Shown: piece by piece, positions 2,104 to 28,112 of the stretch
Position numbering within the stretch: the first letter of the stretch is position 1
Layout of the letters: every line of letters begins with the position of its first letter
Source: Dictyostelium discoideum
Lineage: Eukaryota
Direction: 5' to 3'
Assembly: GCA_000004695.1 (NCBI GenBank)
Contig: CM000154.2
Coordinates: 704,001-768,000 of the forward strand
DNA: 64,000 nt
The notes under the pieces: generated by a model
Told to the model about the DNA's origin: nothing
Databases searched by the model: none
Seen by the model: the letters and a program-made list of their open reading frames with translations, nothing else
Position numbers and translations under genes: made by a program

Positions 2104-2487
2104 TTATTTTGGAGAGCAAACAATGTTTGAACAATTACCAGGAATTATAGCATCCATTCTTTGACCGAAATTAGTGAGAGCAGCATAATTTCTATGTGAT
2201 TCACCAGCAGTGATTTGATATTGTTCTATTGGATACCATTTTACAAAACACACATCAGCACCACTAATAAAAGATTGAACATTACCACGGAAACCATCAG
2301 ATAATGAGAGATAACCTTGAGAGACATTGTAAACATAACGATCACCTTTGAAATCCCAACTACTAAATAAGTAAACTTGACCATCTGGTGCACCAACACA
2401 TGTTGGATCTAATGATAAACTACCATTAATAATTGAAAAAAATAAAATTGTTGAAATAATTAAGATTAAGGAATTTCTAATATTCAT
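2104..2487 (-). CDS. Small secreted protein (127 aa) with a cleavable signal peptide. The product may have a beta/gamma-crystallin-like Greek-key fold.
   Basis: Uninterrupted ORF with ATG at 2487. The N-terminus [25 protein letters not shown] is a classic hydrophobic signal peptide. The mature part contains [16 protein letters not shown] and CFVKWYP, which resemble the Y/FxxxxFxG Greek-key signature of beta/gamma-crystallin or killer-toxin-like folds. Codon usage is ordinary (not a homopolymer artefact) and AT-rich flanks are on both sides. Confidence 0.5.
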
Positions 2488-3216: not shown

Positions 3217-4009
3217 TTAATATTCTTCTTCTTGTTCTTCACCTTCAGTTGAGGCAGAAACAGATTCATAATCTTTTTCGAGAGCAAGTAAATCGTCACG
3301 AGCTTCAGCAAACTCACCTTCCTCCATACCTTCACCAACGTACCAATGGACGAAAGCTCTCTTGACAAACATGAGATCGAATTTGTGGTTGATTCTTGAG
3401 AAGACTTGAGAGATGGCGGTGGTGTTTGATAACATACAAACGCTCTTCTTGACTTCAGCCATTTCACTATCTTTGGTTGAAACTGGAGCTTGATTATTGA
3501 TACCACATTTGAAACCAGTTGGGGACCAATCGACAAAGGAAACGTTTCTTGATTTCTCTGAACGAATGTTTTGAACGGCTTTTTGGGCTTCTTTTGGTAC
3601 GATATCACCTCTGTACATTAAACAACAGGCCATATATTTACCAAGATTTGGTTGACATTTGGCCATAATGTTCTTTTCAGAGAAGACGGCACTGGTGATG
3701 TTATCGACAGTGATGGTTTCGTGGTGAGCTTTTTCACGTGAGATAACTGGTGCATATGAGCAGAGTACAAAGTGAAGACGTGGGAATGGAACTAAATTGG
3801 TTTGAATATCATTGATATCAAGATTTAATTGACCTGGGAAACGGAGTGATGAAGTTAATGAACTAATAACTTGAGCAATTAAACGATTCAAATTGGTATA
3901 AGTTGGTTTTTCAATATCTAATGAATTCTTACAAATATTATAAATTGCTTCATTATCCAACACTATTTTTTTTAAAATAATAATAAAAAAAAGTTAATAT
4001 TTAAAAAAT

Positions 4010-4061
<52 letters not shown>

Positions 4062-4704
4062 ATTAAAATAACTTACTAAAACTAACATCAGTATGTTCTA
4101 ATAAAGAATGAGTTGAAAGTACAGAATTGTATGGTTCAACGACAGAGGTTGAAACTTGTGGTGATGGGTAAACACAGAAATCGAGTTTTGATTTTTTACC
4201 ACCATAGTCGAGAGCTAATTTTTGGAGTAATAAAGAACCGAAACCAGAACCTGTACCACCACCAACACTGTGGAAGACGAGGAAACCTTGGAGACCATCA
4301 CATTGATCGGCTAAACGTCTGATACGATCGACGCAAACATCGATTAATTCTTTACCAACGGTGTAGTGACCACGAGCATAATTGTTGGCAGCATCTTCTT
4401 TACCGGTAATGAGTTGTTCTGGATGGAAGAGATTCTTGTAATCACCAGTTCTAATTTCATCAATTACGGTTGGTTCCAAATCTAAAAAGATGGCTCTTGG
4501 GACAACTTTCTTACCATTGGTTGATTCGCTAAAGAATGTACCTAAATCTTTGTTGAGGTTGTTGACGTCACTTGATTGTTTACGATCAGCTGGAATTGAA
4601 CCATCACGTTCGATACCATGTTCTAAACAGTAAAGTTCCCAACATGAATTACCTACTTGGACACCTGCTTGACCAATATGAATTGAAATAATTTCACGAC
4701 CCAT
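3217..4704 (-). CDS. tubA: Alpha-tubulin, 2 exons, 457 aa
   Basis: Exon 1 is 4077..4704, with ATG at 4704. It encodes [31 protein letters not shown] and the tubulin GGGTGSG motif. The donor is GTAAGT (plus-strand acttac at 4071-4076). A 114-nt intron spans 3963..4076 and contains a 45-nt T run, with acceptor AG at 3964-3963. Exon 2 is 3217..3962 and ends ...EGEEQEEEY followed by a stop. The splice is phase 1 and restores ...[34 protein letters not shown]. The protein is full length and colinear with alpha-tubulins. The ORF track shows the same two pieces as 4063..4704 and 3217..3963. Confidence 0.95.
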
Positions 4705-5301: not shown

Positions 5302-5832
5302 ATGATAAGTAATTTTTTAAAATCAAATAATATTAAAAACAATTCTCCCTTTAGATCATTTTGTACTCGTTATAGTGAATCTCACGAATGGATTAAATTT
5401 AACCATAGAAATAAAACTTGTACTTTAGGAATAACTAAATATGCTTCGGATCAATTAAAATCAATTGTGTAAGTACCAAAATTAAAAAATTAAAAAAAAA
5501 AAAAAATTATAAACTAATAATTATAAATTTTTTTTTTTTTAAAAAAAAGAAATATTAATTTACCAGATTTAAATTCAACGATTACAAGAAAACAACCATT
5601 TGGAAATATTGAAAGTACAAAAACTGTTGCTGATCTTTTTTCAGATGTCGATGGAAAAGCAGTTTTATTGAACTCAGATGTCATTGTAGATCCAACAATA
5701 GTTAGCCATAGTCCAGAGGACAAAGGGTGGTTAATTAAAATGGAAAGTAATGACTTTGAATCATTTAATAAAATGATGACAAAAAGTGAATATGGTCAAT
5801 TCTTAAAAGATATTAATAAATCAAATGTTTAA
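5302..5832 (+). CDS. Glycine cleavage system H protein (lipoyl carrier), mitochondrial-type, 2 exons, about 149 aa
   Basis: Exon 1 is 5302..5468 (MISNFLKSNNIKNNSPFRSFCTRYSESHEWIKFNHRNKTCTLGITKYASDQLKSI plus gt). The donor GTAAGT is at 5469. The acceptor AG is at 5548-5549. Exon 2 is 5550..5832 (VNINLPDLNSTITRKQPFGNIESTKTVADLFSDVDGKAVLLNSDVIVDPTIVSHSPEDKGWLIKMESNDFESFNKMMTKSEYGQFLKDINKSNV then stop). HEW..GIT..A...LG.IV...LP and IES(T)K...SP.SG...N...DP...GWL are the GcvH signatures. The lipoyl-lysine is present in ESTK. Confidence 0.85.
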
Positions 5833-5866
5833 AACAATTAATAACAATTAATAACAATTAATAATA

Positions 5867-5949
<83 letters not shown>

Positions 5950-6170
5950 TAATAATAATAATAAAAAAAGATATTAATAAATCAGAAAATACCATAAAAA
6001 TCCCAAAACAACATAAAAATAGAAATATGGATTTTTATGGCGACACAATTTTTTTATTTTTAATTTTTTTTTTTAATTTTTTTTATTTTTTTTGTTAGCT
6101 AAATTTCTCTTTTTTTTTTTTTTAATTAAAACTTCAAAAAATTAATTAATTTCACAACACATACAAAAAA

Positions 6171-6938
6171 ATGTCAAATAAAGTTATTTTATTTGGTGAT
6201 TTAATGTCACAACCAACAAGAGCAGTATTATGGTTTATGATATTAAATAAAATACCATATGAATTTCGTTTAATTTCAATTAGAAATATGGAACAAAGAT
6301 CAAAAGAATTTGAAAAAATGTAATTATATATATATCAATTTAAAAAATAAATAATAAGAATAATAAATTATAAAAAAAAAAATATATATATTTACTAATT
6401 TTTAATTTTTTTTTTTAGTAATCCATTTAAAAAATTACCAGTAATTCAATATGAAAATCAAAGATTATTTGAAAGTCATACTATATTAAGATGGTTATCA
6501 CAACAATTTAAATTACCACAATATTATGATTACAATGATTTAAATAATAGATGTAAAGTTGATATGTATTTAGATTGGCATCATCTTGGTTTAAGAAAGG
6601 CAACAGCGGGTTTATTCTTTCAAAAGTTTATTTTACCAAAATTTGGTAAATCCGAATCTGAAGATATGGTAAAAGATGCAGAATTAAATATTCCAAGAGC
6701 ATTCAAAGAGATTGAATCAATATTTTTAGCAAATGGTAATAATAATTATTTAATTGGTGATCAAGTTACAATCGCTGATTTCTCATGTTATTGTGAAATT
6801 AATCAATTGGAAGCATTAAATTTTGATTTCAAACCTTATCCAATCCTTACAAATTGGATGGAAAGAATGAAACAATTTAATGGTTTTGAGGAATCTCATA
6901 AAATTATTCATAAAATTGCTTCACAATCAAGATTGTAA
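6171..6938 (+). CDS. Glutathione S-transferase (theta-like class), 2 exons, 222 aa
   Basis: Exon 1 is 6171..6319 (MSNKVILFGDLMSQPTRAVLWFMILNKIPYEFRLISIRNMEQRSKEFEK plus at). The donor gtaatt is at 6320. A 98-nt intron follows. The acceptor AG is at 6417-6418. Exon 2 is 6419..6938, continuing I-NPFKKLPVIQYENQRLFESHTILRWL... and ending ...VTIADFSCYCEINQLEAL...HKIASQSRL. The EF.KINPF.K.P motif and the C-terminal helical domain (TIADF) are typical of GST theta and zeta. Confidence 0.85.
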
Positions 6939-7020
6939 ATTAATAAAATAATAAAAAAAAAAAAAAAAGAAAAATCTATACAAATAATTATTTGTTTTAT
7001 TTAAATTTGAATTTTTATTT

Positions 7021-7516
7021 TTATTTATAATCAGTATTTTCACAATAGTGAGCATACTCTTCTTCAGTCATTAAATGATTGGTTTGAAATGGTTCATTAA
7101 TTTTTAATTCAATTGTCCATGAATCTTGGTCATTATTAAAAAATAATGAATTTGATTTTAATGGTAATTTTGGTTTAATCTTTGTTGTTGTTGTTGTTGT
7201 TTTCGTTGAAATTGTTGTAGTTTGTTGATTATTAAATTTATTATTAACTTTTGAAACTATACCAGATAATGGTGATTTAAATTGAATATTTTCTTCTTCT
7301 TTTGTCCATATAGATAGAAATGGTTGATTTAACCTTATTTTATCATTTATTTTTGGTAATTTAATTTTTAAGATTTTATTAAATTCATTATTTACAATAT
7401 CTGATACATAATTAGTAATACCAATTGTTGCAAAATCTTTATTTTCTGAAATTTTAATCCATTGGTGATTTGGTGAATATTTTAACTTTTTATTTCTATT
7501 ATTATTATTATTATTA

Positions 7517-7548
<32 letters not shown>

Positions 7549-7650
7549 GTTTTTATTATTAATAAAATTTCTAATAAAGAATAAATTATTAAAGTTATTC
7601 CTAAATATTATATTATTATTTATTATTTTATTTGATATTATTTTGTTCAT
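7021..7650 (-). CDS. GcvH-family paralogue (glycine cleavage H-like protein) with N/T-rich inserts, 209 aa
   Basis: Single ORF with ATG at 7650. The core is SPNHQWIKISENKDFATIGITNYVSDIVNNEFNKILKIKLPKINDKI...LSIWTKEEENIQFKSPLSGIV...EPFQTNHLMTEEEYAHYCE. It aligns to GcvH over the H.W..GIT...LG.I..LP...SP.SG...N motifs. A poly-N tract and a poly-T tract sit in surface loops. The position of the lipoyl lysine is ambiguous (TK is two residues off the canonical register). Confidence 0.7.
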
Positions 7651-7674
7651 TATTTTTGTTTATATTAAGAAAAA

Positions 7675-7712
<38 letters not shown>

Positions 7713-7960
7713 AACTTTGAACAATAAAAAAAATATATTCCTTTTTTTTTTCCCTTTTTTTTTTTCCTTTTTTTTTTTTTCCTTTTTTTTTTTTTTTTCC
7801 TTTTTTTTTCCTTTTTAGTAATTTTTTTATTTTTAATTTTTAATTTTTTTTTTTTTTTGAGATTTATATCTTTTTGTAAACCAAAAGTTGGATTTTAATT
7901 ATTAATTTAATTGAGGGTCTTTTTATTTTTTTATTTTAATTTTTATTTTTTATTTTTATT

Positions 7961-8302
7961 TTAAATTTTAATTATTTTATTTTTACAATAATTATCATAT
8001 TCATTTTTATTCATTAAACTATTAAAATCATTTATATTTGAAAATTTTATTTTACATAACCAACCCTTTGACATTGGTGATGAATTTATATAATTTGGAT
8101 AATCGAGTACATCTTGATTAATTGAAATCAATTTACAATTTCTTATTGGTGAATTTAAAAGAATTTGGTCAGAAATTGTATCTAAAGAAATGGTTAATGG
8201 TTCATCATCAACTTGATTTTCATCTTTTATTATTGGAAATTTGATATATAAAACATCATCAAATTTATTAATTGGGCCATTCTCTGTTAATCCTAATGTA
8301 CC

Positions 8303-8343
<41 letters not shown>

Positions 8344-8452
8344 TATTATTATTATTAATTGAAATCCATAAATGATTTTTTGAATATCTTGTACAAAAAA
8401 ATTTATTTGAAAGACTTTTTCTTAAATTATTTGTTGTTTTGAACAAAAACAT
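7961..8452 (-). CDS. GcvH-family paralogue lacking the conserved lipoyl-lysine, 163 aa
   Basis: Single ORF with ATG at 8452. The N-terminus ...FCTRYSKNHLWISI matches the FCTRYSESHEWIKF of the gene at 5302. The core is LGLTENGPINKFDDVLYIKFPIIKDE...PLTISLDTISDQILLNSPIRNCKL...SKGWLCKIKFSNINDFNSLMNKNEYDNY. The GcvH fold motifs are kept, but the ESVK lipoylation site reads SLDT, so there is no lysine. Confidence 0.7.
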
Positions 8453-8677
8453 TTTTTTTAATTGCTCGCTCTAAAAAATGAAAAATAAAAATTAAAAAAA
8501 AAAAAAAAATATTTTCATTTTTTTCATTTTACATTTTTTAAAAAATGTTTTAATTTTATTTATTTTTATATTAATTTTCTATATCAAATAGATCAGTCAA
8601 AAATACTCAAAATGATATAAAAAAAAAATCAATTCAACCATCTATTTTTTTTCAAATTTTTATAATGCCAAAACTGA

Positions 8678-8686
8678 CATCGAACC
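8678..8686 (-). promoter_or_regulatory. External B box (ex-B) downstream of the tRNA gene
   Basis: The minus strand reads GGTTCGATG (embedded in gtcgctGGTTCGATGtcag), a duplicate of the intragenic B-box consensus GGTTCGANTCC. It lies about 30 nt 3' of the tRNA end. This arrangement is characteristic of Dictyostelium tRNA genes and is the landmark used by TRE3 retrotransposons. Confidence 0.55.
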
Positions 8687-8715
8687 AGCGACTTTAGGCT
8701 CGCAGATTGAAAAAC

Positions 8716-8805
8716 TGCCCGAGCTCAGAATCGAACTGAGGACCCTCTGTTATCGCTTTAGTACATAGTACAAGACAGATATAATAACCACTATACGACA
8801 CGGGC
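8716..8805 (-). tRNA. Intron-containing tRNA gene, 90 nt pre-tRNA with a 17-nt intron between positions 37 and 38. The anticodon reads UGU under the most parsimonious fold, so the isotype is tentatively Thr and uncertain.
   Basis: Minus-strand sequence: GCCCGTG-TC-GTAT-AGTGGTTA-TTAT-A-TCTGT-CTTGTA-[CTATGTACTAAAGCGAT]-A-ACAGA-GGGTC-CTCAG-TTCGATT-CTGAG-CTCGGGC-A, followed by GTTTTT (Pol III terminator). The T-arm with TTCGATT loop is perfect. The acceptor stem is 6/7 paired. The D-loop carries AGTGG..A. The anticodon stem TCTGT/ACAGA only pairs if 17 nt are removed as an intron. Confidence 0.75.
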
Positions 8806-8829: not shown

Positions 8830-9180
8830 AGCAGTTACCATATTCAGAATTTACCATTATTCCATTCAAAAATAATATTCAGAATGTGCCCAAGGAGAAA
8901 AAACTAATAATTGCGTTATCCAATTCAAAAAAAGAAAAATATTCAGAATGCGAGATAAAGGTGGAATTGGTTAAGTTTTAGTGAAAAAGTATCTAATATT
9001 CCCTTTTGACGTAAAGGTCCTCTCTGTACATAATAAACCAAAGAAGGATATTACAGTTTTGTAATGAATAGCACTTGGAAAAACCATCAAAATGTTAAAC
9101 CATTAAAAGATTGCACAATAGCCATCCAATATAAAAACATATTAAGAATTTAACCACCAACAAATAATAAAAAAAACTCT
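8830..9180. repeat. Compositionally distinct non-coding block with three degenerate direct repeats of about 45 bp. Each repeat ends in AATATTCAGAATG. It may be a remnant or solo module of a tRNA-gene-targeted (TRE5-like) element, or a regulatory repeat.
   Basis: The block begins 25-50 bp upstream of the tRNA 5' end, where TRE5 elements integrate. Its GC content is clearly higher than the surrounding intergenic DNA. There is no ORF. The repeats are ccattattccattcaaaaataatattcagaatgtgcc, ccaattcaaaaaaagaaaaatattcagaatgcgag and an earlier accatattcagaatttacc. It cannot be matched to a known element without a database. Confidence 0.3.
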
Positions 9181-9204
9181 TTAAAGATTTTTTATGGCTT
9201 TTTT

Positions 9205-9350
9205 ATTTATTTCTATTTCTATTTCTATTTCTATTTCTATTTCTATTTCTATTTCTATTTCTATTTCTATTTCTATTTCTATTTCTATTTCTATTTCTAT
9301 TTCTATTTCTATTTCTATTTCTATTTCTATTTCTATTTCATTTCTATTTC
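9205..9350. repeat. Microsatellite (TTCTAT)n of about 22 units, followed by (TTTTA)n at 9355-9405
   Basis: A perfect hexanucleotide array is seen directly in the sequence (ttctatttctatttctat...). It creates the spurious ISISISIS ORF at 9194..9418. Confidence 0.95.
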
Positions 9351-9389
9351 TATTCTATTCTATTTTATTTTATTTTATTTTATTTTATT

Positions 9390-10242
9390 TTATTTTATTT
9401 TATTTATTAAATTTGTGAAAATATCATCACTATCGCCATCATTAATTACTTTAATGATATTTTTATATTTTCGATAAAATTGGTCATCATATAATTGAAT
9501 TGCATCGTTGGGTAAATAAAGCGATGTTAAAGAGGGAGGATGTAATGAAAGATCCAATGAAAAATTTGCAGAGAGTAATATTAGAGTTTCTAAATTTTGA
9601 GGTAATAAATGAGATTCCAATAAAGGAATTTCTTCTAATCCATTTGAAACATAGATTTGTAAAATCTTTAGATTAACTAAATCTGTTAAAAAATCACTTG
9701 CAGAATAATATTGTGGTAACCAGTGAAATGAAAATGATGTTAAATTCTTCAAGTTTGATAATGATCTAATATTCTCTATTTGACTATTATACTGTGACAT
9801 ACTAAAAATAATAGTCTCACAAGATTGTGGTATTGAATCTTGAATAATTGCACGAGTATAACCACAAATTTCTAATGATTTCAAATTCTTTAAATGTGAT
9901 AAACACATAATACCACCAGCACCAGCACCAGCACCAGCACCAGTACCAGTACCAGTACCAGTACCAGCTTCACCATCTTCTGTTGATGATGGAATTAAAT
10001 CACGATCATATAAATTTAAATTTAAATCTGTTATAGAATTTGGTAATAAAGGTAATGTGAAATTTTCCATTCCACCATCCATATTATTTGCTTTGAAATT
10101 TGGAAATGGGTATTTTATATTCAACTTCTTCATTGTTGAATGTAATGTTAATAATGCTTGATCATTTTCAATTAGTTCTCTAGAAATTGATAATGATTCA
10201 ATTGAATTTGGAAATTCTTTAAAATTTTGATTACTATTACTT

Positions 10243-10291
<49 letters not shown>

Positions 10292-11399
10292 GATTATTTT
10301 TACTTTTATTTTTGGTTTCATCTTTTTTTTGAATTGATAAAAATTTTAAAGAATTTGGAAAATTAATAAAATGATTTGTTTTGAATTGGTTTTGATTAAC
10401 AGTTATTTTTAAATCTATTAAATTTGTTAATGATGGTATAAGTAATTCATGATTAAATGGTTGAGATATTTCTAAACTTGTTAATGAAGTTGGTAAGAAA
10501 TTGGTTAGGGATGTTGATGATGGTAATTGATGCAATTCTAGTTGTTTTAAATTTGATGGTAATGAATTACATAGATCAGTACCAATGAAATTCGGAATAC
10601 CACATGATTTTAAAGATGTTATTGAATTTGGTAATACACCTGGTTCAATATCACCTTTGAACGTACCTAAATCTAATGATTTCAATTGTTTATTTGGTAA
10701 TGAACCTTGTAGTAATCGATTCTTATATTTAAAGCCTAAATCCAATTCAATTAAATCATCTGGTAACCAACCTGGTTCAATGGCTAACCTATAGGCATCA
10801 CCAATTTCTAATTTAGTTAATGATTGTGGTAATAGGTTAGGTCCGAGAGGATAGCTATTAAATGATTTACCAATGTATAATGTTTCTAAACCATTTGGTA
10901 TTATAGATTTATTAGTAGTTTGGTCTAGTAAACTTTGTGAAAAAAAGTGACCAAATTTCAAAGTTTTTAAAGTCGTTGATGGAAATAAACCAGATATAAT
11001 TCTTTGATTATTTGAAAAACATGTTGTAAATTTTTTAATAATTTTTGGAAATGGTAATGGTGGTGGTGGTGATGATTCATTTGATTCATTTGATTCATTT
11101 GATTCATCATAATCTTCACTTGTAAATACTTTTTTATATGGTGTCATGGTTGGATTTGGTGTTTCAATAACTTGAACATTTTCTATAAAATATGAAAGTA
11201 ACGGTTCAATTTTATGAATTTCCATTATAGAATTGGATGGAATCGTTATTGTTATATCTCTTAAATATTCTCTTTCTTTATAGTTTTTTAATTGTTCAAT
11301 AGTAAATATCCTATTTGAATAATTTTGATTAAATAGTTTCAAATATTCAATAATTTGATTCTTAATTACAATATTCCTCCATAATTTATAAAATAAAAA

Positions 11400-11463
<64 letters not shown>

Positions 11464-11477
11464 TTTATAATTTCCAT
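9390..11477 (-). CDS. FNIP-repeat / leucine-rich-repeat family protein with N-terminal poly-N, 695 aa
   Basis: Single long ORF with ATG at 11477. After the poly-N tract come repeated units of the form LP.SL..L.FG..FNQ.L..G.LP..L..L. Examples are LPQSLTKLEIGDAY, LPDDLIELDLGFKYKNRLLQGSLPNKQLKSLDLGTF and LPNSITSLK. These are typical of the Dictyostelium FNIP repeat family. A GTGTGTGAGAGAGAG-encoding stretch is internal. Confidence 0.7.
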
Positions 11478-11754: not shown

Positions 11755-17476
<5,722 letters not shown>

Positions 17477-17591: not shown

Positions 17592-20251
<2,660 letters not shown>

Positions 20252-20796: not shown

Positions 20797-22740
20797 ATGA
20801 TAAGAAATTTATCTATTTGTAAAAATTTTAGTAGTAGTAATAATATTATTAGTATTAAACCAATTTATTTATTAAATATAAAAAGAAATTTTTCAACCAC
20901 TCAACAGCAACAACTTAAAAAAGAAATTAAATCAAATCAAATAGAAGATTTTAATGTAAAGAATAAATGGTTTGATATAAATTCAAGATCAGCATTTTTA
21001 TTATTAAATCAATGTTTTAAATCAATATTTGAAAAAGCATTAACAAAAGAAGAGATTGAAAAAGTATTTAAAAATGAAAAGATTAAATATCAAGCATCTC
21101 TATCAACAGTACCATCAAAGAAAGTATTTGATCATGACTATTCGCTAAGTAATTTAGTGGTAGCATCAATGTTATTAAAAGACAATAATTTAGGTCAAAA
21201 ATTAATTGATGCATTTGAGTCTAATAAATCGGAAATACCCTATTCATCAATGATTGAAAAGTTAGAATTAAGTAATAAAGGTCATTTAAATCTTCGAGTT
21301 TCAGACGAATATTTAACAACTATATTAAAACTATGGATCAACCCTAATGAGGATAAATCGAAATTCCTAATAGATAATTTAAAATTTCAAGACGATGTTA
21401 ATTTAAATGAAATGGAAAAAGAGAATAAACTATTACCAATTAGAAGTAAGAAAGTTTTAGTTGATTTTGCATCACCAAATATGTCAAAGGAATTGCATGT
21501 TGGTCATTTAAGATCGATTGCATTGGGTGAATCAATTTGTAGAATTTTAGAATACATGGGACATGATGTGGAAAGAATTAGTCATGCTGGTGATTTCGGT
21601 ACACCATTGGGAATTGTATTGGCACATTCATTGGAGACCAATGCTGATTATTTAAAACATATTCAAGATCCAACTTGTAAAGATAACGAACCAATTATAC
21701 CAACACCAAAGGAACTATCTGAACTTTATACCACATCAAAGAAAAGAACTAAATCTGATGAACAATTTTCAAAGAGAACACTTTGGACTGCCGCTGAATT
21801 TCAAAAGGGCCCACCAATCTATGACAAAGTTAGTGGAGAACAAATTGGTGGTAGTGATCCAATAGTGTATGATGCATGGTTATCACTTTGTGAAGCATCT
21901 AGAATCGGATTCAATAAAGTGTTTCAAATGTTGGATATTAATGTAAACGAACGTGGTGAATCATTCTATAGGGATATGTTACCTGGTGTAATTGAAGATT
22001 TGACTAAAATGGGATTCGTAGATATTTCAGATGATGGTAGAAAATGTATATTCTTGGATAAAACCAAATGTAAAGATTCTCAAGTTCCAGTAGTAGTTCA
22101 AAAGAGTGATGGTGCTTATCTATACGCCACAACCGATATCGCCGCAATTAAACATCGTGTTGAAAATGGTAAAGAATGGGTCATTGTCATCACTGATGAT
22201 TCACAAAGTGATCATTTCCAACAAGTGTTTAAAATTGCTGAAGATGCAAATTGGTTAAATCGTAAGCAAACTCGTGTTGATCATTTATCATTTGGTGTTG
22301 TTCGTGGTCCCAATGGTCAAAAATTATCATCTCGTGATGGTAATCCAATTGCTTTAATCGATCTATTACAAGAATCAATTGAACGTTCAAAACAAGCTAC
22401 ATCACTTTCAAAATCTTTTACACGTTCTGAAAAATTAGATATTACTCAAAATGCAAATAATGTTGAAATTAATAGAATGCTTGATACTTTTGAAAATAAT
22501 AATAATGATGATAATAATAATGAAACTACAATTGATGAAAAACATTTCCTCAAGATTGGTATGGGTGCATTAAAATATTATGATTTAGCACACAGAAACA
22601 ATCCATATGTTTTTTCTTATGATAGTATTTTATCATTTAAAGGTAATACAAGTATTTATATTTTATATTGTTATACTCGTATTTCAACTTTATTAAGAAG
22701 AGCTAATTTTGATGGTTTAAATTTAAATCCAAAGTATGTA

Positions 22741-22773
<33 letters not shown>

Positions 22774-23090
22774 AAAGTATTAACTTTTTTTTTTTTTTTT
22801 TTTTTTATTTAGTTTGATTGAATTTAAAGAATTTACAGAAAAAGAAAGAAATTTAGTATTTATTATGTCTAGATTTAGTGATGTAATGAAAGGTACAGAA
22901 CAATCATTAAAACCTGGATTTATTTGTGATTACCTTTGGGATCTCGCAAATAGTTTCCATCAATTTTATGAAACTGAAAAAATTATTGGAAATGAAAGAC
23001 AAGATCAAAGATTATTTATTTGTTTGGCAGTTCAAAGAATTTTATCAACCGGTTTACATTTATTAGGTGTTGAAACTGTTGAAAAATTAT

Positions 23091-23907: not shown

Positions 23908-23910
<3 letters not shown>

Positions 23911-24560
23911 TCAGTAGATCCAAAACAATCAAAAATAGCAGATGTATTCGAAAGATGTGATGTTTTAGAGAGTTTTCCATTTCATGATGATCAATCAGAG
24001 ATTGAAGAACAATCACCAAGTATTGGATATGATGCATATGATAAATCATTGAATTATACAGATAGAGGTGCCTATGAAACTCAATGGTCCGAAGAAACAA
24101 TTGGTATGGAAAAAATGGAAGAAGTTTTAAAACAGGGTGATTCATTCATCAATATGGTCTATACATATCGTTCATGTTCAAAGGCATTACCAACTGTTAA
24201 AACCGCTGAACAAGTTAATAAAACTCAAATCTATGAAGGTAATTTCGAAGTGTTAGAACCAGAGATTAAGAAATTAAAGGATTTCATGTACTTTCAAAAG
24301 GACACAATCAAATTATTTTGTGATCATATTAAAAAATTAGCATCAACCTATGATAAAAAAAAAGAAACAATCTCAGCTTCTGAATCTTTTATCAATTATT
24401 TAGTTCGTATTTTAGATCTCTTAGCAATTTTAGATGCTTTAAAAAATATGAAAGCTTGTTTAAATAATGATTTTTCATTTTTTAAAAGGTAAAAATTAAA
24501 TTAAAAATTAAAAAAAAAAAAAAAAAAAGAAAAAATAATTATTATATAATTTTATATTAA

Positions 24561-24594
<34 letters not shown>

Positions 24595-27500
24595 AATAGA
24601 GCAACTGGATTTTTAAGAAAACAAATGTCAGGTACTGAAGATCAAACTCAAGAGAATCATACATTATATTTATTTTTAGCAAATCAAAATTCAATTACAT
24701 CATCATTGAAATTAGAATTACATAATATTGATAAGTTTGATGATATTTTACCAATGATTGTTAATCAATGTGCAGATTATTTGGAGCAAGAAAAGTATAT
24801 TTTACCAAGTGAAAAACATTGTTTACTTAGAGTTATGCCATTTGTATTGTTTTTAATCGATGAGAATGACTCTAAACATAATATCAACAAGAACAAGAAT
24901 TTGAATATCTCACGTTATGCAAAGATTTTCAAAAAGAATCCAGTCGTACCATTGTATGGTGATATGCAAATCACATTGGAATCATTGGTTAAGAGATCAC
25001 CACATTTCGATGAGAAGGCATGGGGTACCTCAACATTGGATAGTAAATCAGCGTTGGATTACGAGATCATTCATGTTTTGGACCAAACACGTTCCCTCTA
25101 CAACGAGTATATGGCACGTTTTGCAAATATGGTCAACGAGATTAGAGCGGCCAAAGCTCGTGGTCCAAAGGAACCATTGCCATTGGCAGAGTCTGATATT
25201 CAAGCAATCACATTGATGGGTTTGAGGATTCTCTCTGATTGGACCTCAAGAGTACTTCAACAATCGGCTTGGAAATATTCTAAACCAAACAATGATCCAA
25301 CCATTTCAGCAACCTTTGATTATGAACGTGTCGTTAAATTCAATTATACCAAAGAGGAGAGAACCGCTTTGGTTCAATTGATCGCCATGATCAAATCATT
25401 GGCTTCATTGATGATGAAGAGTGAAACATTACTTCAACCAATACTTCGTAAGACCATTCATCAAGAGTTGCAAGAGTTTGTTCAAATCAATCTCAAAGAG
25501 ACCATTAAATCCTTTGTAAAGAATAATCCAAAGAAGAAGGATAACATCAAATTGGAGATGTCACAATTGAAGAATATCTCTGTCGATTGGTTCAGTGGTT
25601 TCGAACCTGCCGAAGCTGTACCAAACAAAAAGAGTAAAGAAGTCGAAGAGAAAGTTCAAATTCCTGCTCGTGCCGTACCACCATCACCAACCCAATTGGA
25701 ATTGATTCTCACTTTGGTCTCATCATTAATGGATAAAAAGAAGGATTTCTCCTCTGATCAATATCGTGACTTTGAAGCATTTAGTAGCAAGGCCTTCTTT
25801 TATCGTTACCTTTTATCATTATCCTCATCAATCATTTCAATCACCGATTTAGCCGATCTTTGGTATCGTGAATTCTATTTAGAATTGAACAATCGTGTAC
25901 AATTTCCAATTGAAACTTCGCTTCCATGGATTCTTACCGATCATATCTTGGAATCAGATGATCCATCATTAATTGAACATCTCTTCTATCCTTTGGGTCT
26001 CTACAATGATACTGCTCAACGTGCTCTCCTAAGTTTAAACCAACGTTTTCTCTACGATGAAATCGAAGCAGAACTCAATCTTTGTTTCGATCAATTACTT
26101 TACAAACTCTCTGGTAAGGTTTATACTCATTTCAAGACTCAAGCAAGTTCTATCCTCTTGGATAAACCATATAAAACTCAATTGGAATTGGCTCATTTCA
26201 ATGGTAAATTACATACACCAAAATCACGTTTCGACGTTTTGCTACGTCAAAAACATATTACCCTCCTTGGTCGTTCCATTGATCTTTGTGGTCTATTGGC
26301 TCAAAGACAAAACAATACCATTCGTCAAAATTTAGATTATGCCATCAGTAGATTCGAAGCTTGCGATTTAACATCGATCGTTGAATTGGAGACCCAAATC
26401 GCCAATATCAAACTCACTCACAAACTCTTATCAGAATACTTTGATATAGATCCATTCGAATCAATCTTTAATGAAATCAATGAGTCCACTTCTTTGGTCT
26501 CTTATCATGGTCGTATTGTACTTCATATTATCTTTGAATTGGTGGCCGATTTCGCTCCAAACTATACCTTCAATTCAATCACTCAACGTTTTATAAAGGC
26601 TCCATACACTTTCACCGAAGAATTGAAACGTGATGCACTTCCAAAAACTAATCCTGTCTTTTTGTTTGGTAATAAATATTTGAATGCTGCCTATGCAAAC
26701 TCGATCGAACTCTACAAGAATTTCATTGGTGTACCACATATTCAATCAATCCTTAGAATCGTTGGTAAAAAGAATCTTCCTTTGATCGTTGCTGAGGTAT
26801 TACGTAATATTGAAATCAAGATCACCAATGTTCTCTCACCATACGTTAGTGAATTACTTCAAGGTATGCCTGCATCGACTAAATTACCAATCTATGATTA
26901 TGGTACTGAAGGTGGCTATGGTTATTTCCAACTTAAATTGAAAGACATTTACATCTATCCAGATTTACGTCCAGAGGTACTTCAAACATTCAGAGAATTG
27001 GGTAACAGTTTGGTATTTATGAATCTTTTGGATCAAGTTATCACTCAAACCGATAGTTATAACTTTGCCAAAGCTGCACCTTTCCTTGGTATCACTCCAG
27101 AGACTTGGAAAGATTTAGAACCATCCACTGAGGATCCAACCCTTCAATCACCATTGTACTCTCAATTACAAAAGTTGGCTCAACTCTTGGAGAGTAGACC
27201 AGAGGTTGCCAAATCTTCACAATCACTCAATGATATGGTTGCAAACGCATGGCGTGCCGATAAATTCTATCGTCCATCCGAACAAAACTTTTCTCTCTTT
27301 AAGAGTGTCCTCCAACGTTTCTCTTCAATCCTTAATATTGTTCGTCATGATTGGTCTGGTGCTCCTCCAGATAATGGTGTCATTTGCGTTGATTCCTCAA
27401 CAGAGTTTTATCGTTTATGGAGTGCCCTTCAATTTGTAATCTGTTGGCCACTCTCAAATGAAAATGATAAATCTTTCCATGAATTGTTTGGTGATGGTTT

Positions 27501-27799
27501 AATGTGGGCCGGTTGTTCATTGATCCATTTCCTTGGTCAACAATATCGTTTCGAATTATTTGATTTCTGTTATCACATTTTAAATGTAGAAGAGGCTGCT
27601 GCTGTTCGTTCAGATAAACCTGCCTTAAAGAATTTCTTTAAGAATGCTCAAATCATCAAAGATATCAATAATCAAATCTTTAGTATACTCAATACATATT
27701 GTCCACCACCACCACCTTCTAATATGATCCTTTCACCACCTGCTACTGAACAAGCTGAACAATTTATAGTTACAACCACTGTTGAAGAACAATCAATTC

Positions 27800-27831
<32 letters not shown>

Positions 27832-28112
27832 CTTCAACAATCAACTTCAAATTCTGGAAGTAGTTTATCACTTTCTGCTGCTGGTGCACCACCTCCACCA
27901 CCACCACCATCAACAAATGGTTTACCACCTCCACCACCAATGGCTGTAAGTAAATCAAAAATAAAATTTATAATAAAAAAAAAAAAAAAAAAAAAATTAA
28001 TAATACTAACATGCTCATAATTTAATAGGAATATGAAATGAGTTCAAGTATTGATGATTTTGCTCCACCCCCACCACCACCATTTGGAATGCCACCACCC
28101 CCACCAATGTAA
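23908..28112 (+). CDS. pirA: PIR121 / CYFIP (Sra-1) subunit of the SCAR/WAVE complex, 3 exons, about 1336 aa
   Basis: Exon 1 is 23908..24488. The donor gtaaaa is at 24489. The acceptor AG is at 24598-24599. Exon 2 is 24600..27945. The donor GTAAGT is at 27946. The branch point TACTAAC is at 28004-28010. The acceptor AG is at 28027-28028. Exon 3 is 28029..28112. The protein is colinear with CYFIP1/2. [20 protein letters not shown]...[19 protein letters not shown]...[27 protein letters not shown] matches the human LYTWRSCSRAIPQVK...FMYFQRKAIERF...[27 protein letters not shown]. Further on, [65 protein letters not shown] and [30 protein letters not shown] match their CYFIP counterparts. The last micro-exon adds a Pro-rich tail [27 protein letters not shown]. 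Confidence 0.9.

Follow-up and report, generated by a model that had tools for sequence, protein, structure and literature searches.

The window analysed here is a 64-kb stretch of chromosome 5 of Dictyostelium discoideum AX4 with a G+C content of 25%. Between positions 5302 and 8452 it encodes three members of the glycine cleavage H-protein family (GCV_H, PF01597), gcvH3, gcvH4 and gcvH5, with a glutathione S-transferase (GST) gene embedded among them. The H protein serves the glycine cleavage system as its shuttle and is also a mitochondrial hub that passes lipoate to 2-oxoacid dehydrogenases, and the GCV_H family is usually represented by a single copy. The PF01597 scores of gcvH3, gcvH4 and gcvH5 were 106.7, 45.9 and 52.5 bits, respectively, all above the gathering score of 22.2. 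The coordinates and structures proposed in a first-pass annotation of this DNA, which had placed three GcvH-family genes within 3.2 kb, were therefore right. The presence of three GCV_H members inside 3.2 kb is not a chance event, and a tblastn search of the 64-kb window revealed no GCV_H copy beyond these three. The gcvH3-GST-gcvH4-gcvH5 segment is part of a dictyostelid-specific expansion of the H-protein family. The features of the segment are as follows.

Positions 5302..5468, plus strand: gcvH3 exon 1, coding for a basic N-terminal extension free of acidic residues and for the beginning of the H domain (FCTRYSESHEW).
Positions 5469..5549, plus strand: gcvH3 intron (GTAAGT...AG), phase 2, in the codon of Val56.
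Positions 5550..5832, plus strand: gcvH3 exon 2 including the stop codon, with the hairpin IESTK and the lipoyl-lysine codon K80 at 5620-5622.
Positions 6171..6938, plus strand: GST gene of 222 amino acids with an intron at 6320-6418, Pfam GST_N/GST_C, outside the GCV_H family.
Positions 7021..7650, minus strand: gcvH4, intronless, 209 amino acids, H domain with HQW, enlarged hairpin SIWTKEEENIQFKSP, K117 codon at 7300-7302.
Positions 7961..8452, minus strand: gcvH5, intronless, 163 amino acids, FCTRYSKNHLW start, hairpin SLDTISDQ, Ser94 codon at 8171-8173.

The spliced gcvH3 product (149 amino acids) was identical to XP_637059 / Q54JU3, named "Putative glycine cleavage system H protein 3" in UniProt. 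Likewise, the open reading frame (ORF) at 7961-8452 on the minus strand corresponded exactly to XP_637062 / Q54JU0, the "Glycine cleavage system H-like protein gcvH5, mitochondrial" of UniProt. No identical entry for the 209-amino-acid ORF at 7021-7650 (minus strand) was present in the protein collection searched, and the name gcvH4 was assigned to it by its position and by the UniProt naming series. Its orthologues, 187-219 amino acids long, were found in other D. discoideum strains and in D. citrinum, D. dimigraforme and D. firmibasis. We considered whether the two minus-strand ORFs could be parts of other genes and rejected this possibility, since each codes for an entire H domain, with its own Met and stop, and has orthologous ORFs with identical limits.

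The lipoylation site of gcvH5 has lost its lysine. The register of the site was determined by HMMER alignments to PDB H-proteins (three for gcvH5) and by a MAFFT alignment of 159 sequences. In both, D91-T92-I93-S94 of gcvH5 lay opposite E-S-V-K, with Ser94 at the lipoyl-lysine column, and the stretch between K76 and K107 was free of lysine. The AlphaFold2 model of gcvH5 (mean predicted local distance difference test score, pLDDT, of 76.8) contained strands at residues 87-92 and 96-100 and a turn at 93-95; S94 therefore occupies the turn of the hairpin, the place expected for the lipoyl-lysine. The earlier claim that the 7961 copy lacks the lipoylation lysine is thus upheld. The lost motif, however, had been read as SLDT, which is two residues out of register, and the aligned motif is DTIS. 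In addition, the His-Glu-Trp (HEW) motif reads HLW in gcvH5 (Glu to Leu). A serine occupies the same column in D. citrinum, D. dimigraforme, D. firmibasis and D. purpureum. Judging from these alignments, the canonical site of gcvH5 is unable to accept lipoate. A modification of Ser94 was also considered and was dropped, as it was without any supporting motif. The poly-Asn loop of gcvH5 (window 8311-8352, codons 34-47) differs between strains, with a protein of 163 amino acids in AX4 and of 198 amino acids in the D. discoideum assembly GCA_054859385.1, where the gcvH5 region (9103-9699 of the retrieved stretch) showed about 91-92% DNA identity to AX4 with many indels.

The protein fold is predicted to be retained in both minus-strand genes. 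In Foldseek searches against PDB, all 22 significant matches of the gcvH5 model were H-proteins (target-normalised TM-score up to 0.82), and the top 22 matches of the gcvH4 model were likewise all H-proteins. For the top 22 matches of the two models, which are predicted and not experimental structures, the target-normalised TM-scores ranged from 0.60 to 0.82. The exclusive matching of both models to H-proteins, at scores of 0.75-0.82, agrees with the first-pass view of the 7021 and 7961 copies as paralogues with the H-protein fold.

In gcvH4, K117 aligned one column ahead of the lipoyl-lysine, in a hairpin two residues longer than the canonical one, and the AlphaFold2 model (core pLDDT 70-90) placed the hairpin turn at residues 117-120 (KEEE). 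The HEW motif reads HQW (Glu to Gln). This is the shifted lysine previously noted in the 7021 copy, and it is not conserved: K117 is replaced by Asn in D. firmibasis and a second hairpin lysine, K125, by Gly in D. dimigraforme. No hairpin lysine was invariant among the four gcvH4 orthologues, and for this reason gcvH4 is probably also a non-carrier. This copy, reported to carry poly-N and poly-T insertions, has a long Asn-rich basic presequence and a Thr-rich insertion (residues ~141-171), both of which were predicted to be disordered. Alternatively, gcvH4 might still carry lipoyl or octanoyl groups on the displaced Lys117 and be specialised together with gcvH3 (e.g. in the relay to 2-oxoacid dehydrogenase E2), gcvH5 being the sole non-carrier. 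The position of K117 within the predicted turn 117-120, its presence in three of the four orthologues, and the viability of cells that lack the canonical gene gcvH1 (PMC7024701), which leaves room for another carrier, are compatible with this alternative. However, besides the substitutions of K117 and K125 in the orthologues, the Glu three residues ahead of the Lys is replaced by Trp, Thr or Ser, the hairpin is enlarged by two residues, and the HEW Glu has become Gln. We therefore regard a carrier function of gcvH4 as improbable.

The gcvH3 protein is divergent but bears the lysine. It aligned with GcvH of T. maritima over the whole domain (E = 4e-21), with IESTK opposite IESVK and K80 as the lipoyl-lysine equivalent, and this lysine is kept in D. 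citrinum and D. firmibasis, that is, in three species with D. discoideum. The HEW motif is intact, and gcvH3 retains the Ser-x-His-Glu-Trp start and the Asp four residues past the Lys. It has lost the near-invariant (99%-conserved) Pro after the hairpin (SP to SD) and the GD of GDVV. We counted the residues retained at 31 columns with at least 70% conservation, defined on 133 lysine-bearing H-proteins. The gcvH1-type genes kept 27-28 of these columns, gcvH3 22, gcvH5 16 and gcvH4 13. The single intron of gcvH3 is offset by 14 nucleotides, by coordinate arithmetic, from the first intron common to the gcvH1-type genes. The gene at 5302 had been taken for a canonical H protein with two exons and a lipoyl-lysine in ESTK. 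The exons and the lysine are as described, but canonical status does not stand, given 22 of 31 conserved columns and the replacement of Pro by Asp; gcvH3 is, by these comparisons, a divergent paralogue. It can probably still be octanoylated or lipoylated, and it may still be a carrier, for glycine cleavage, for the lipoyl relay or for neither.

At least six GCV_H genes are encoded by D. discoideum, and the canonical lysine is confined to gcvH1 and gcvH3. The canonical gene gcvH1 (DDB_G0287773), with three exons and the motif ESVKAAS, is outside the window; in GCA_054859385.1 it shares a contig with gcvH4, at a distance of about 27 kb. Its protein localises to mitochondria, and cells in which the gene is knocked out survive, with elevated glycine and altered folates (PMC7024701). 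Since glycine is raised in the knockout, the paralogues do not stand in for gcvH1 in glycine cleavage. A GCV_H gene of 163 amino acids adjoins gcvH1, also outside the window. It has three exons like gcvH1, and its hairpin reads GSPDSTK, with the Lys displaced by three residues. Elsewhere on the chromosome, gcvH2 (Q54FI0, "H-like protein gcvH2" in UniProt) has ESSN, with Asn at the lysine column. In D. firmibasis, six GCV_H genes were found inside about 11 kb, in the order H5, H4, GST, H3, tubulin, a canonical copy, an old-yellow-enzyme gene, a non-canonical copy of 167 amino acids and a second canonical copy. Two intron positions are common to the gcvH1-type genes and the genes of 163 and 167 amino acids, whereas H4 and H5 are intronless. 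The annotated 202-amino-acid H5 model of D. firmibasis (CM069767.1, 9033-9822 of the retrieved stretch) is mis-spliced into a long poly-Asn tail; the uninterrupted ORF encodes a normal H5 of 166 amino acids with the end ...DNYCKNKIE.

The only matches of word-indexed protein searches with gcvH3, gcvH4 and gcvH5 were orthologues within the D. discoideum species complex and, for gcvH3, generic bacterial GcvH; these searches missed gcvH1, gcvH2 and the D. purpureum gene. An exhaustive profile search with gcvH5 detected no second cluster below E = 1e-30, and the next match past the H5 cluster had E = 2e-13. The D. purpureum orthologue was represented among its matches solely by a truncated model of 66 amino acids, which was extended manually. 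About 20 of the 148 best matches to the H5 profile, a list biased to H5-like sequences, were lysine-less, including one protein of the fungus Sporodiniella umbellata and several metagenomic sequences. Lysine-less GCV_H proteins are not unique to dictyostelids.

The cluster is old. Pairwise identity among gcvH3, gcvH4 and gcvH5 was 25-28%, so that the duplication was not recent. In a neighbour-joining tree (137 columns, 200 bootstraps), H4 and H5 joined at 85%, and D. purpureum H5 joined H5 at 100%. The divergent paralogues (H2, the 163-amino-acid gene, H3, H4 and H5) joined at 84%, a node at which long-branch attraction is possible, apart from the gcvH1 clade (99%). The genes gcvH4 and gcvH5 lie next to each other on one strand, both lack introns, and they are sister tandem duplicates. 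The cluster is a local duplication-divergence series, as had been proposed, but it is only part of a larger and old family.

D. citrinum and D. firmibasis share the arrangement H5-H4-GST-H3-tubulin, and the order in D. dimigraforme is H5-H4-GST-tubulin. The same gene triplet, which the first-pass annotation had suggested looking for in other dictyostelids, therefore occurs in the former two species, while gcvH3 is missing from the D. dimigraforme block. A search confined to the GST-tubulin spacer of D. dimigraforme (772 bp) did not uncover any gcvH3 remnant. The GST gene has the same position in D. citrinum, D. dimigraforme and D. firmibasis and is a conserved part of the cluster layout; a functional link between this embedded gene and the H-like genes is not evident. 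In D. dimigraforme (JBTAPM010000048.1), the H5-H4-GST-tubulin block occurs twice, as a perfect mirror image, at the end (last ~23 kb) of a 4.68-Mb contig. This may reflect a genuine inverted duplication at the contig terminus or an error of assembly, and gcvH3 is in neither copy. In D. purpureum, an intronless ORF was 40% identical to gcvH5 (tblastn E = 9e-27), with the hairpin IETMSD and Ser at the lysine column. The lysine loss therefore predates the split between D. discoideum and D. purpureum. The D. purpureum gene model DICPUDRAFT_150081 (XP_003286134, 66 amino acids) is truncated at an internal Met, and the gene encodes about 180 amino acids from an upstream Met. Its locus (GL871002.1, about 9655-10201 of the retrieved stretch) is not syntenic and has RhoGEF, DUF2465 and FNIP genes as neighbours.

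The ratio of nonsynonymous to synonymous substitution rates (dN/dS), estimated pairwise among four species by the Nei-Gojobori method, was 0.12-0.30 for gcvH3, 0.15-0.28 for gcvH4, 0.26-0.49 for gcvH5 and 0.12-0.21 for the embedded GST. All the ORFs compared were intact; that of H4 is full-length in D. citrinum, D. dimigraforme, D. firmibasis and two strains of D. discoideum, and that of H5 in all of these and in D. purpureum. From residue ~50 on, the core of gcvH5 is nearly invariant among three species. On this comparative evidence, the window paralogues are maintained genes and not pseudogenes, and the purifying selection on gcvH4 and gcvH5 implies that the proteins do something. A contrary explanation is that gcvH4 and gcvH5 are decaying duplicates, either functionless relics or unitary pseudogenes in the making. 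It could draw on the 13-16 of 31 conserved columns left, on the gcvH5 ratios, which exceed those of the neighbouring GST, and on the inserted poly-Asn and poly-Thr tracts, since the length of the H5 tract varies between strains (163 versus 198 amino acids). However, full-length ORFs with matching ends were present in every genome examined, every pairwise dN/dS was well under 1, the H5 core has hardly changed, and the D. purpureum orthologue persists at 40% identity with the same Ser. Decay is thus a very unlikely explanation of the two genes.

The N-terminal extensions of the three proteins are 22-57 residues long and contain 4-9 Lys/Arg and no Asp/Glu. A 33-residue segment of GcvH1 is known to direct red fluorescent protein to mitochondria (PMC7109396), and the first 33 residues encoded by gcvH1 in GCA_054859385.1 match this published targeting segment. 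The junction xFCTRY(S/T)xxHxW is common to gcvH3, gcvH5 and the GcvH1 segment, in agreement with the FCTRYS..H.W N-terminus earlier found to be shared by the 7961 copy and the 5302 gene. We infer that gcvH3, gcvH4 and gcvH5 probably reside in the mitochondrial matrix.

The paralogues have lost the acidic surface typical of H-proteins. The H domain of gcvH1 has a net charge of -12 and an isoelectric point (pI) of 4.2, that of H3 and H5 is near neutral (net -2), and that of H4 is basic (+2, pI 8.6); the pI of gcvH2 is 9.3. The lysine-less H-like proteins might have been recruited outside lipoate and glycine metabolism, for instance as structural or accessory subunits of another mitochondrial complex in which the barrel-sandwich fold would serve as a scaffold. 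The loss of the acidic surface in H4 and gcvH2 is in line with such recruitment, as is the loss of most partner-facing motifs (GD to NK in H4, while H5 retains just the Asp; ESVK; SG to RN in H5), and H5-specific residues are strongly conserved (GTLGLTENGP, NSPIRNCK and SPMSKGWLCKIK). On the other hand, there was no positive sign of any specific alternative partner, and the genes are still clustered with lysine-bearing family members. Recruitment to an unrelated process is a possible but doubtful explanation.

The genes around the cluster are listed below.

Positions 2104-2487, minus strand: ORF of 127 amino acids with a signal-peptide-like N-terminus and several Cys, without a Pfam match.
Positions 3217-4704, minus strand: alpha-tubulin.
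Positions 8716-8805, minus strand: tRNA gene of 90 nucleotides (Rfam RF00005, 47.7 bits), just upstream of gcvH5.
Positions 9390-11477, minus strand: FNIP-repeat protein.
Positions 12695-17476, plus strand: UBR/PRT6-type E3 ligase.
Positions 18241-19236, minus strand: nicastrin.
Positions 20797-22812, plus strand: arginyl-tRNA synthetase.
Positions 23908-28020, plus strand: CYFIP/PIR121 homologue.

D. citrinum and D. firmibasis have the tubulin, FNIP-repeat, UBR-ligase and nicastrin genes in this same order. A gene is likewise called at the position of the 2104-2487 ORF in a second D. discoideum strain (15109-15492 of the retrieved stretch). The tRNA gene at 8716-8805 was found by Rfam and missed by ARAGORN at its default setting. 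Its length of 90 nucleotides implies an intron, its anticodon region resembles GTA (Tyr) by eye, and a partial tRNA-like stretch lies beside it at about 8660-8710.

Compared with known systems, the window paralogues share with gcvH1 and other canonical GcvH/GCSH proteins the PF01597 domain and predicted fold, a similar size, a mitochondrial-type presequence and the FCTRY(S/T)xxHxW junction, and gcvH3 also keeps the lipoyl-lysine. They differ from canonical GcvH by the Ser at the lysine column in gcvH5, the displaced and non-conserved Lys in gcvH4, the absence of the HEW Glu and of the acidic surface in both, and, in gcvH3, the absence of the near-invariant Pro past the hairpin. The gcvH2 and 163-amino-acid genes have degenerate hairpins like H4 and H5, and in the tree they cluster with H3, H4 and H5; however, they are at other loci, and the 163-amino-acid gene has three exons in contrast to the intronless H4 and H5. 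Bacterial GcvH-L (Staphylococcus/Streptococcus) and LbpA of sulfur oxidisers are extra H-protein paralogues with roles outside glycine cleavage, and the GcvH-L structure 5a35 was among the Foldseek matches of the gcvH4 and gcvH5 models. Both GcvH-L and LbpA keep the lysine, are lipoylated, and have macrodomain/sirtuin/LplA2 or sHdr genes as operon partners, neither of which features was observed here. Membership of either group was rejected, because the lysine is missing in H4 and H5 and the neighbours are tubulin, GST, tRNA, an FNIP-repeat gene and a UBR-type ligase.

The closest functional parallel comes from plants. The BADC proteins are paralogues of BCCP that lack the biotinyl-lysine and inhibit acetyl-CoA carboxylase (bioRxiv 10.1101/634550; PMC12706156). 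Like them, H4 and H5 are paralogues of a swinging-arm carrier of the biotinyl/lipoyl superfamily that have lost the attachment lysine and are still conserved, in this case under purifying selection. The family, the cofactor and the organelle are different, and binding and inhibition of acetyl-CoA carboxylase have been demonstrated for BADC; the relationship is one of analogy and not of membership. By this analogy, a regulatory or decoy role of H4 and H5 is plausible.

The mitochondrial lipoyl relay depends on the H-protein (yeast Gcv3, human GCSH), and in pea H-protein structures the HEW Glu lines the cavity for the aminomethyl-lipoamide arm. With both the attachment lysine and the HEW Glu lost, gcvH4 and gcvH5 would be unable to carry a lipoyl or aminomethyl group, or to serve as an octanoyl/lipoyl donor of the relay. 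The retention of the fold under purifying selection, in turn, points to a role based on protein binding. We therefore incline, with a slight preference, to the interpretation that gcvH4 and gcvH5 are non-catalytic mitochondrial "pseudo-carriers" that act through protein binding. They may bind the partners of the true H protein, namely the P, T and L proteins, or alternatively the octanoyl-transferase, lipoyl-synthase and lipoyl-transferase enzymes of the relay, or new partners. The outcome would be modulation, rather than catalysis, of glycine cleavage or protein lipoylation.

Several observations weigh against this interpretation. The loss of the acidic surface makes simple competition for H-protein docking sites doubtful, and it weakens the suggestion of the first-pass annotation that non-lipoylated H-like copies regulate lipoate transfer. 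As acidity is lost and the partner-facing motifs are mostly changed, new partners are about as likely as old ones. Few of the conserved H-protein columns are left (13/31 in H4 and 16/31 in H5), and a dN/dS of up to 0.49 indicates a somewhat relaxed constraint on gcvH5. K117 of gcvH4 is located within the predicted hairpin turn, and its lipoylation in D. discoideum itself is conceivable from the model. Furthermore, our literature search found no papers on gcvH3, gcvH4 or gcvH5 of Dictyostelium. It also found none on gcvH2 or on lysine-less H-protein paralogues in general, and a paper on anaerobic amoebozoan organelles contained no text on H-protein.

An extended form of the pseudo-carrier interpretation, which we put forward tentatively and consider rather unlikely, is that gcvH4 and gcvH5 (together with gcvH2) represent the first pseudo-carriers of the lipoyl system, tuning one-carbon flux or lipoylation, with gcvH3 as a dedicated lipoyl-relay carrier. 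The pseudo-carriers might dock on enzymes of glycine cleavage or the lipoyl relay, for example across the growth-to-development switch. A subfunctionalised gcvH3 serving the relay could help account for the viability of gcvH1-null cells.

The genes themselves are already known, being catalogued in GenBank and UniProt, where curators separate "H protein" from "H-like protein" (gcvH2 and gcvH5). The value of the present analysis is therefore in the comparative evidence that they are maintained, and not in their discovery. Should the copies do nothing measurable, the cluster would represent a well-documented lineage-specific expansion of a gene family. Conserved H-protein copies that are unable to carry lipoate would constitute a natural experiment on what roles the scaffold may have beyond cofactor carriage. 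The gcvH1 gene of D. discoideum has already been used as a model of disease and drug mechanism. If the lysine-less copies do have a regulatory effect on lipoylation or glycine cleavage, they would represent a new level of control over one-carbon and energy metabolism, in an organism amenable to genetic work.

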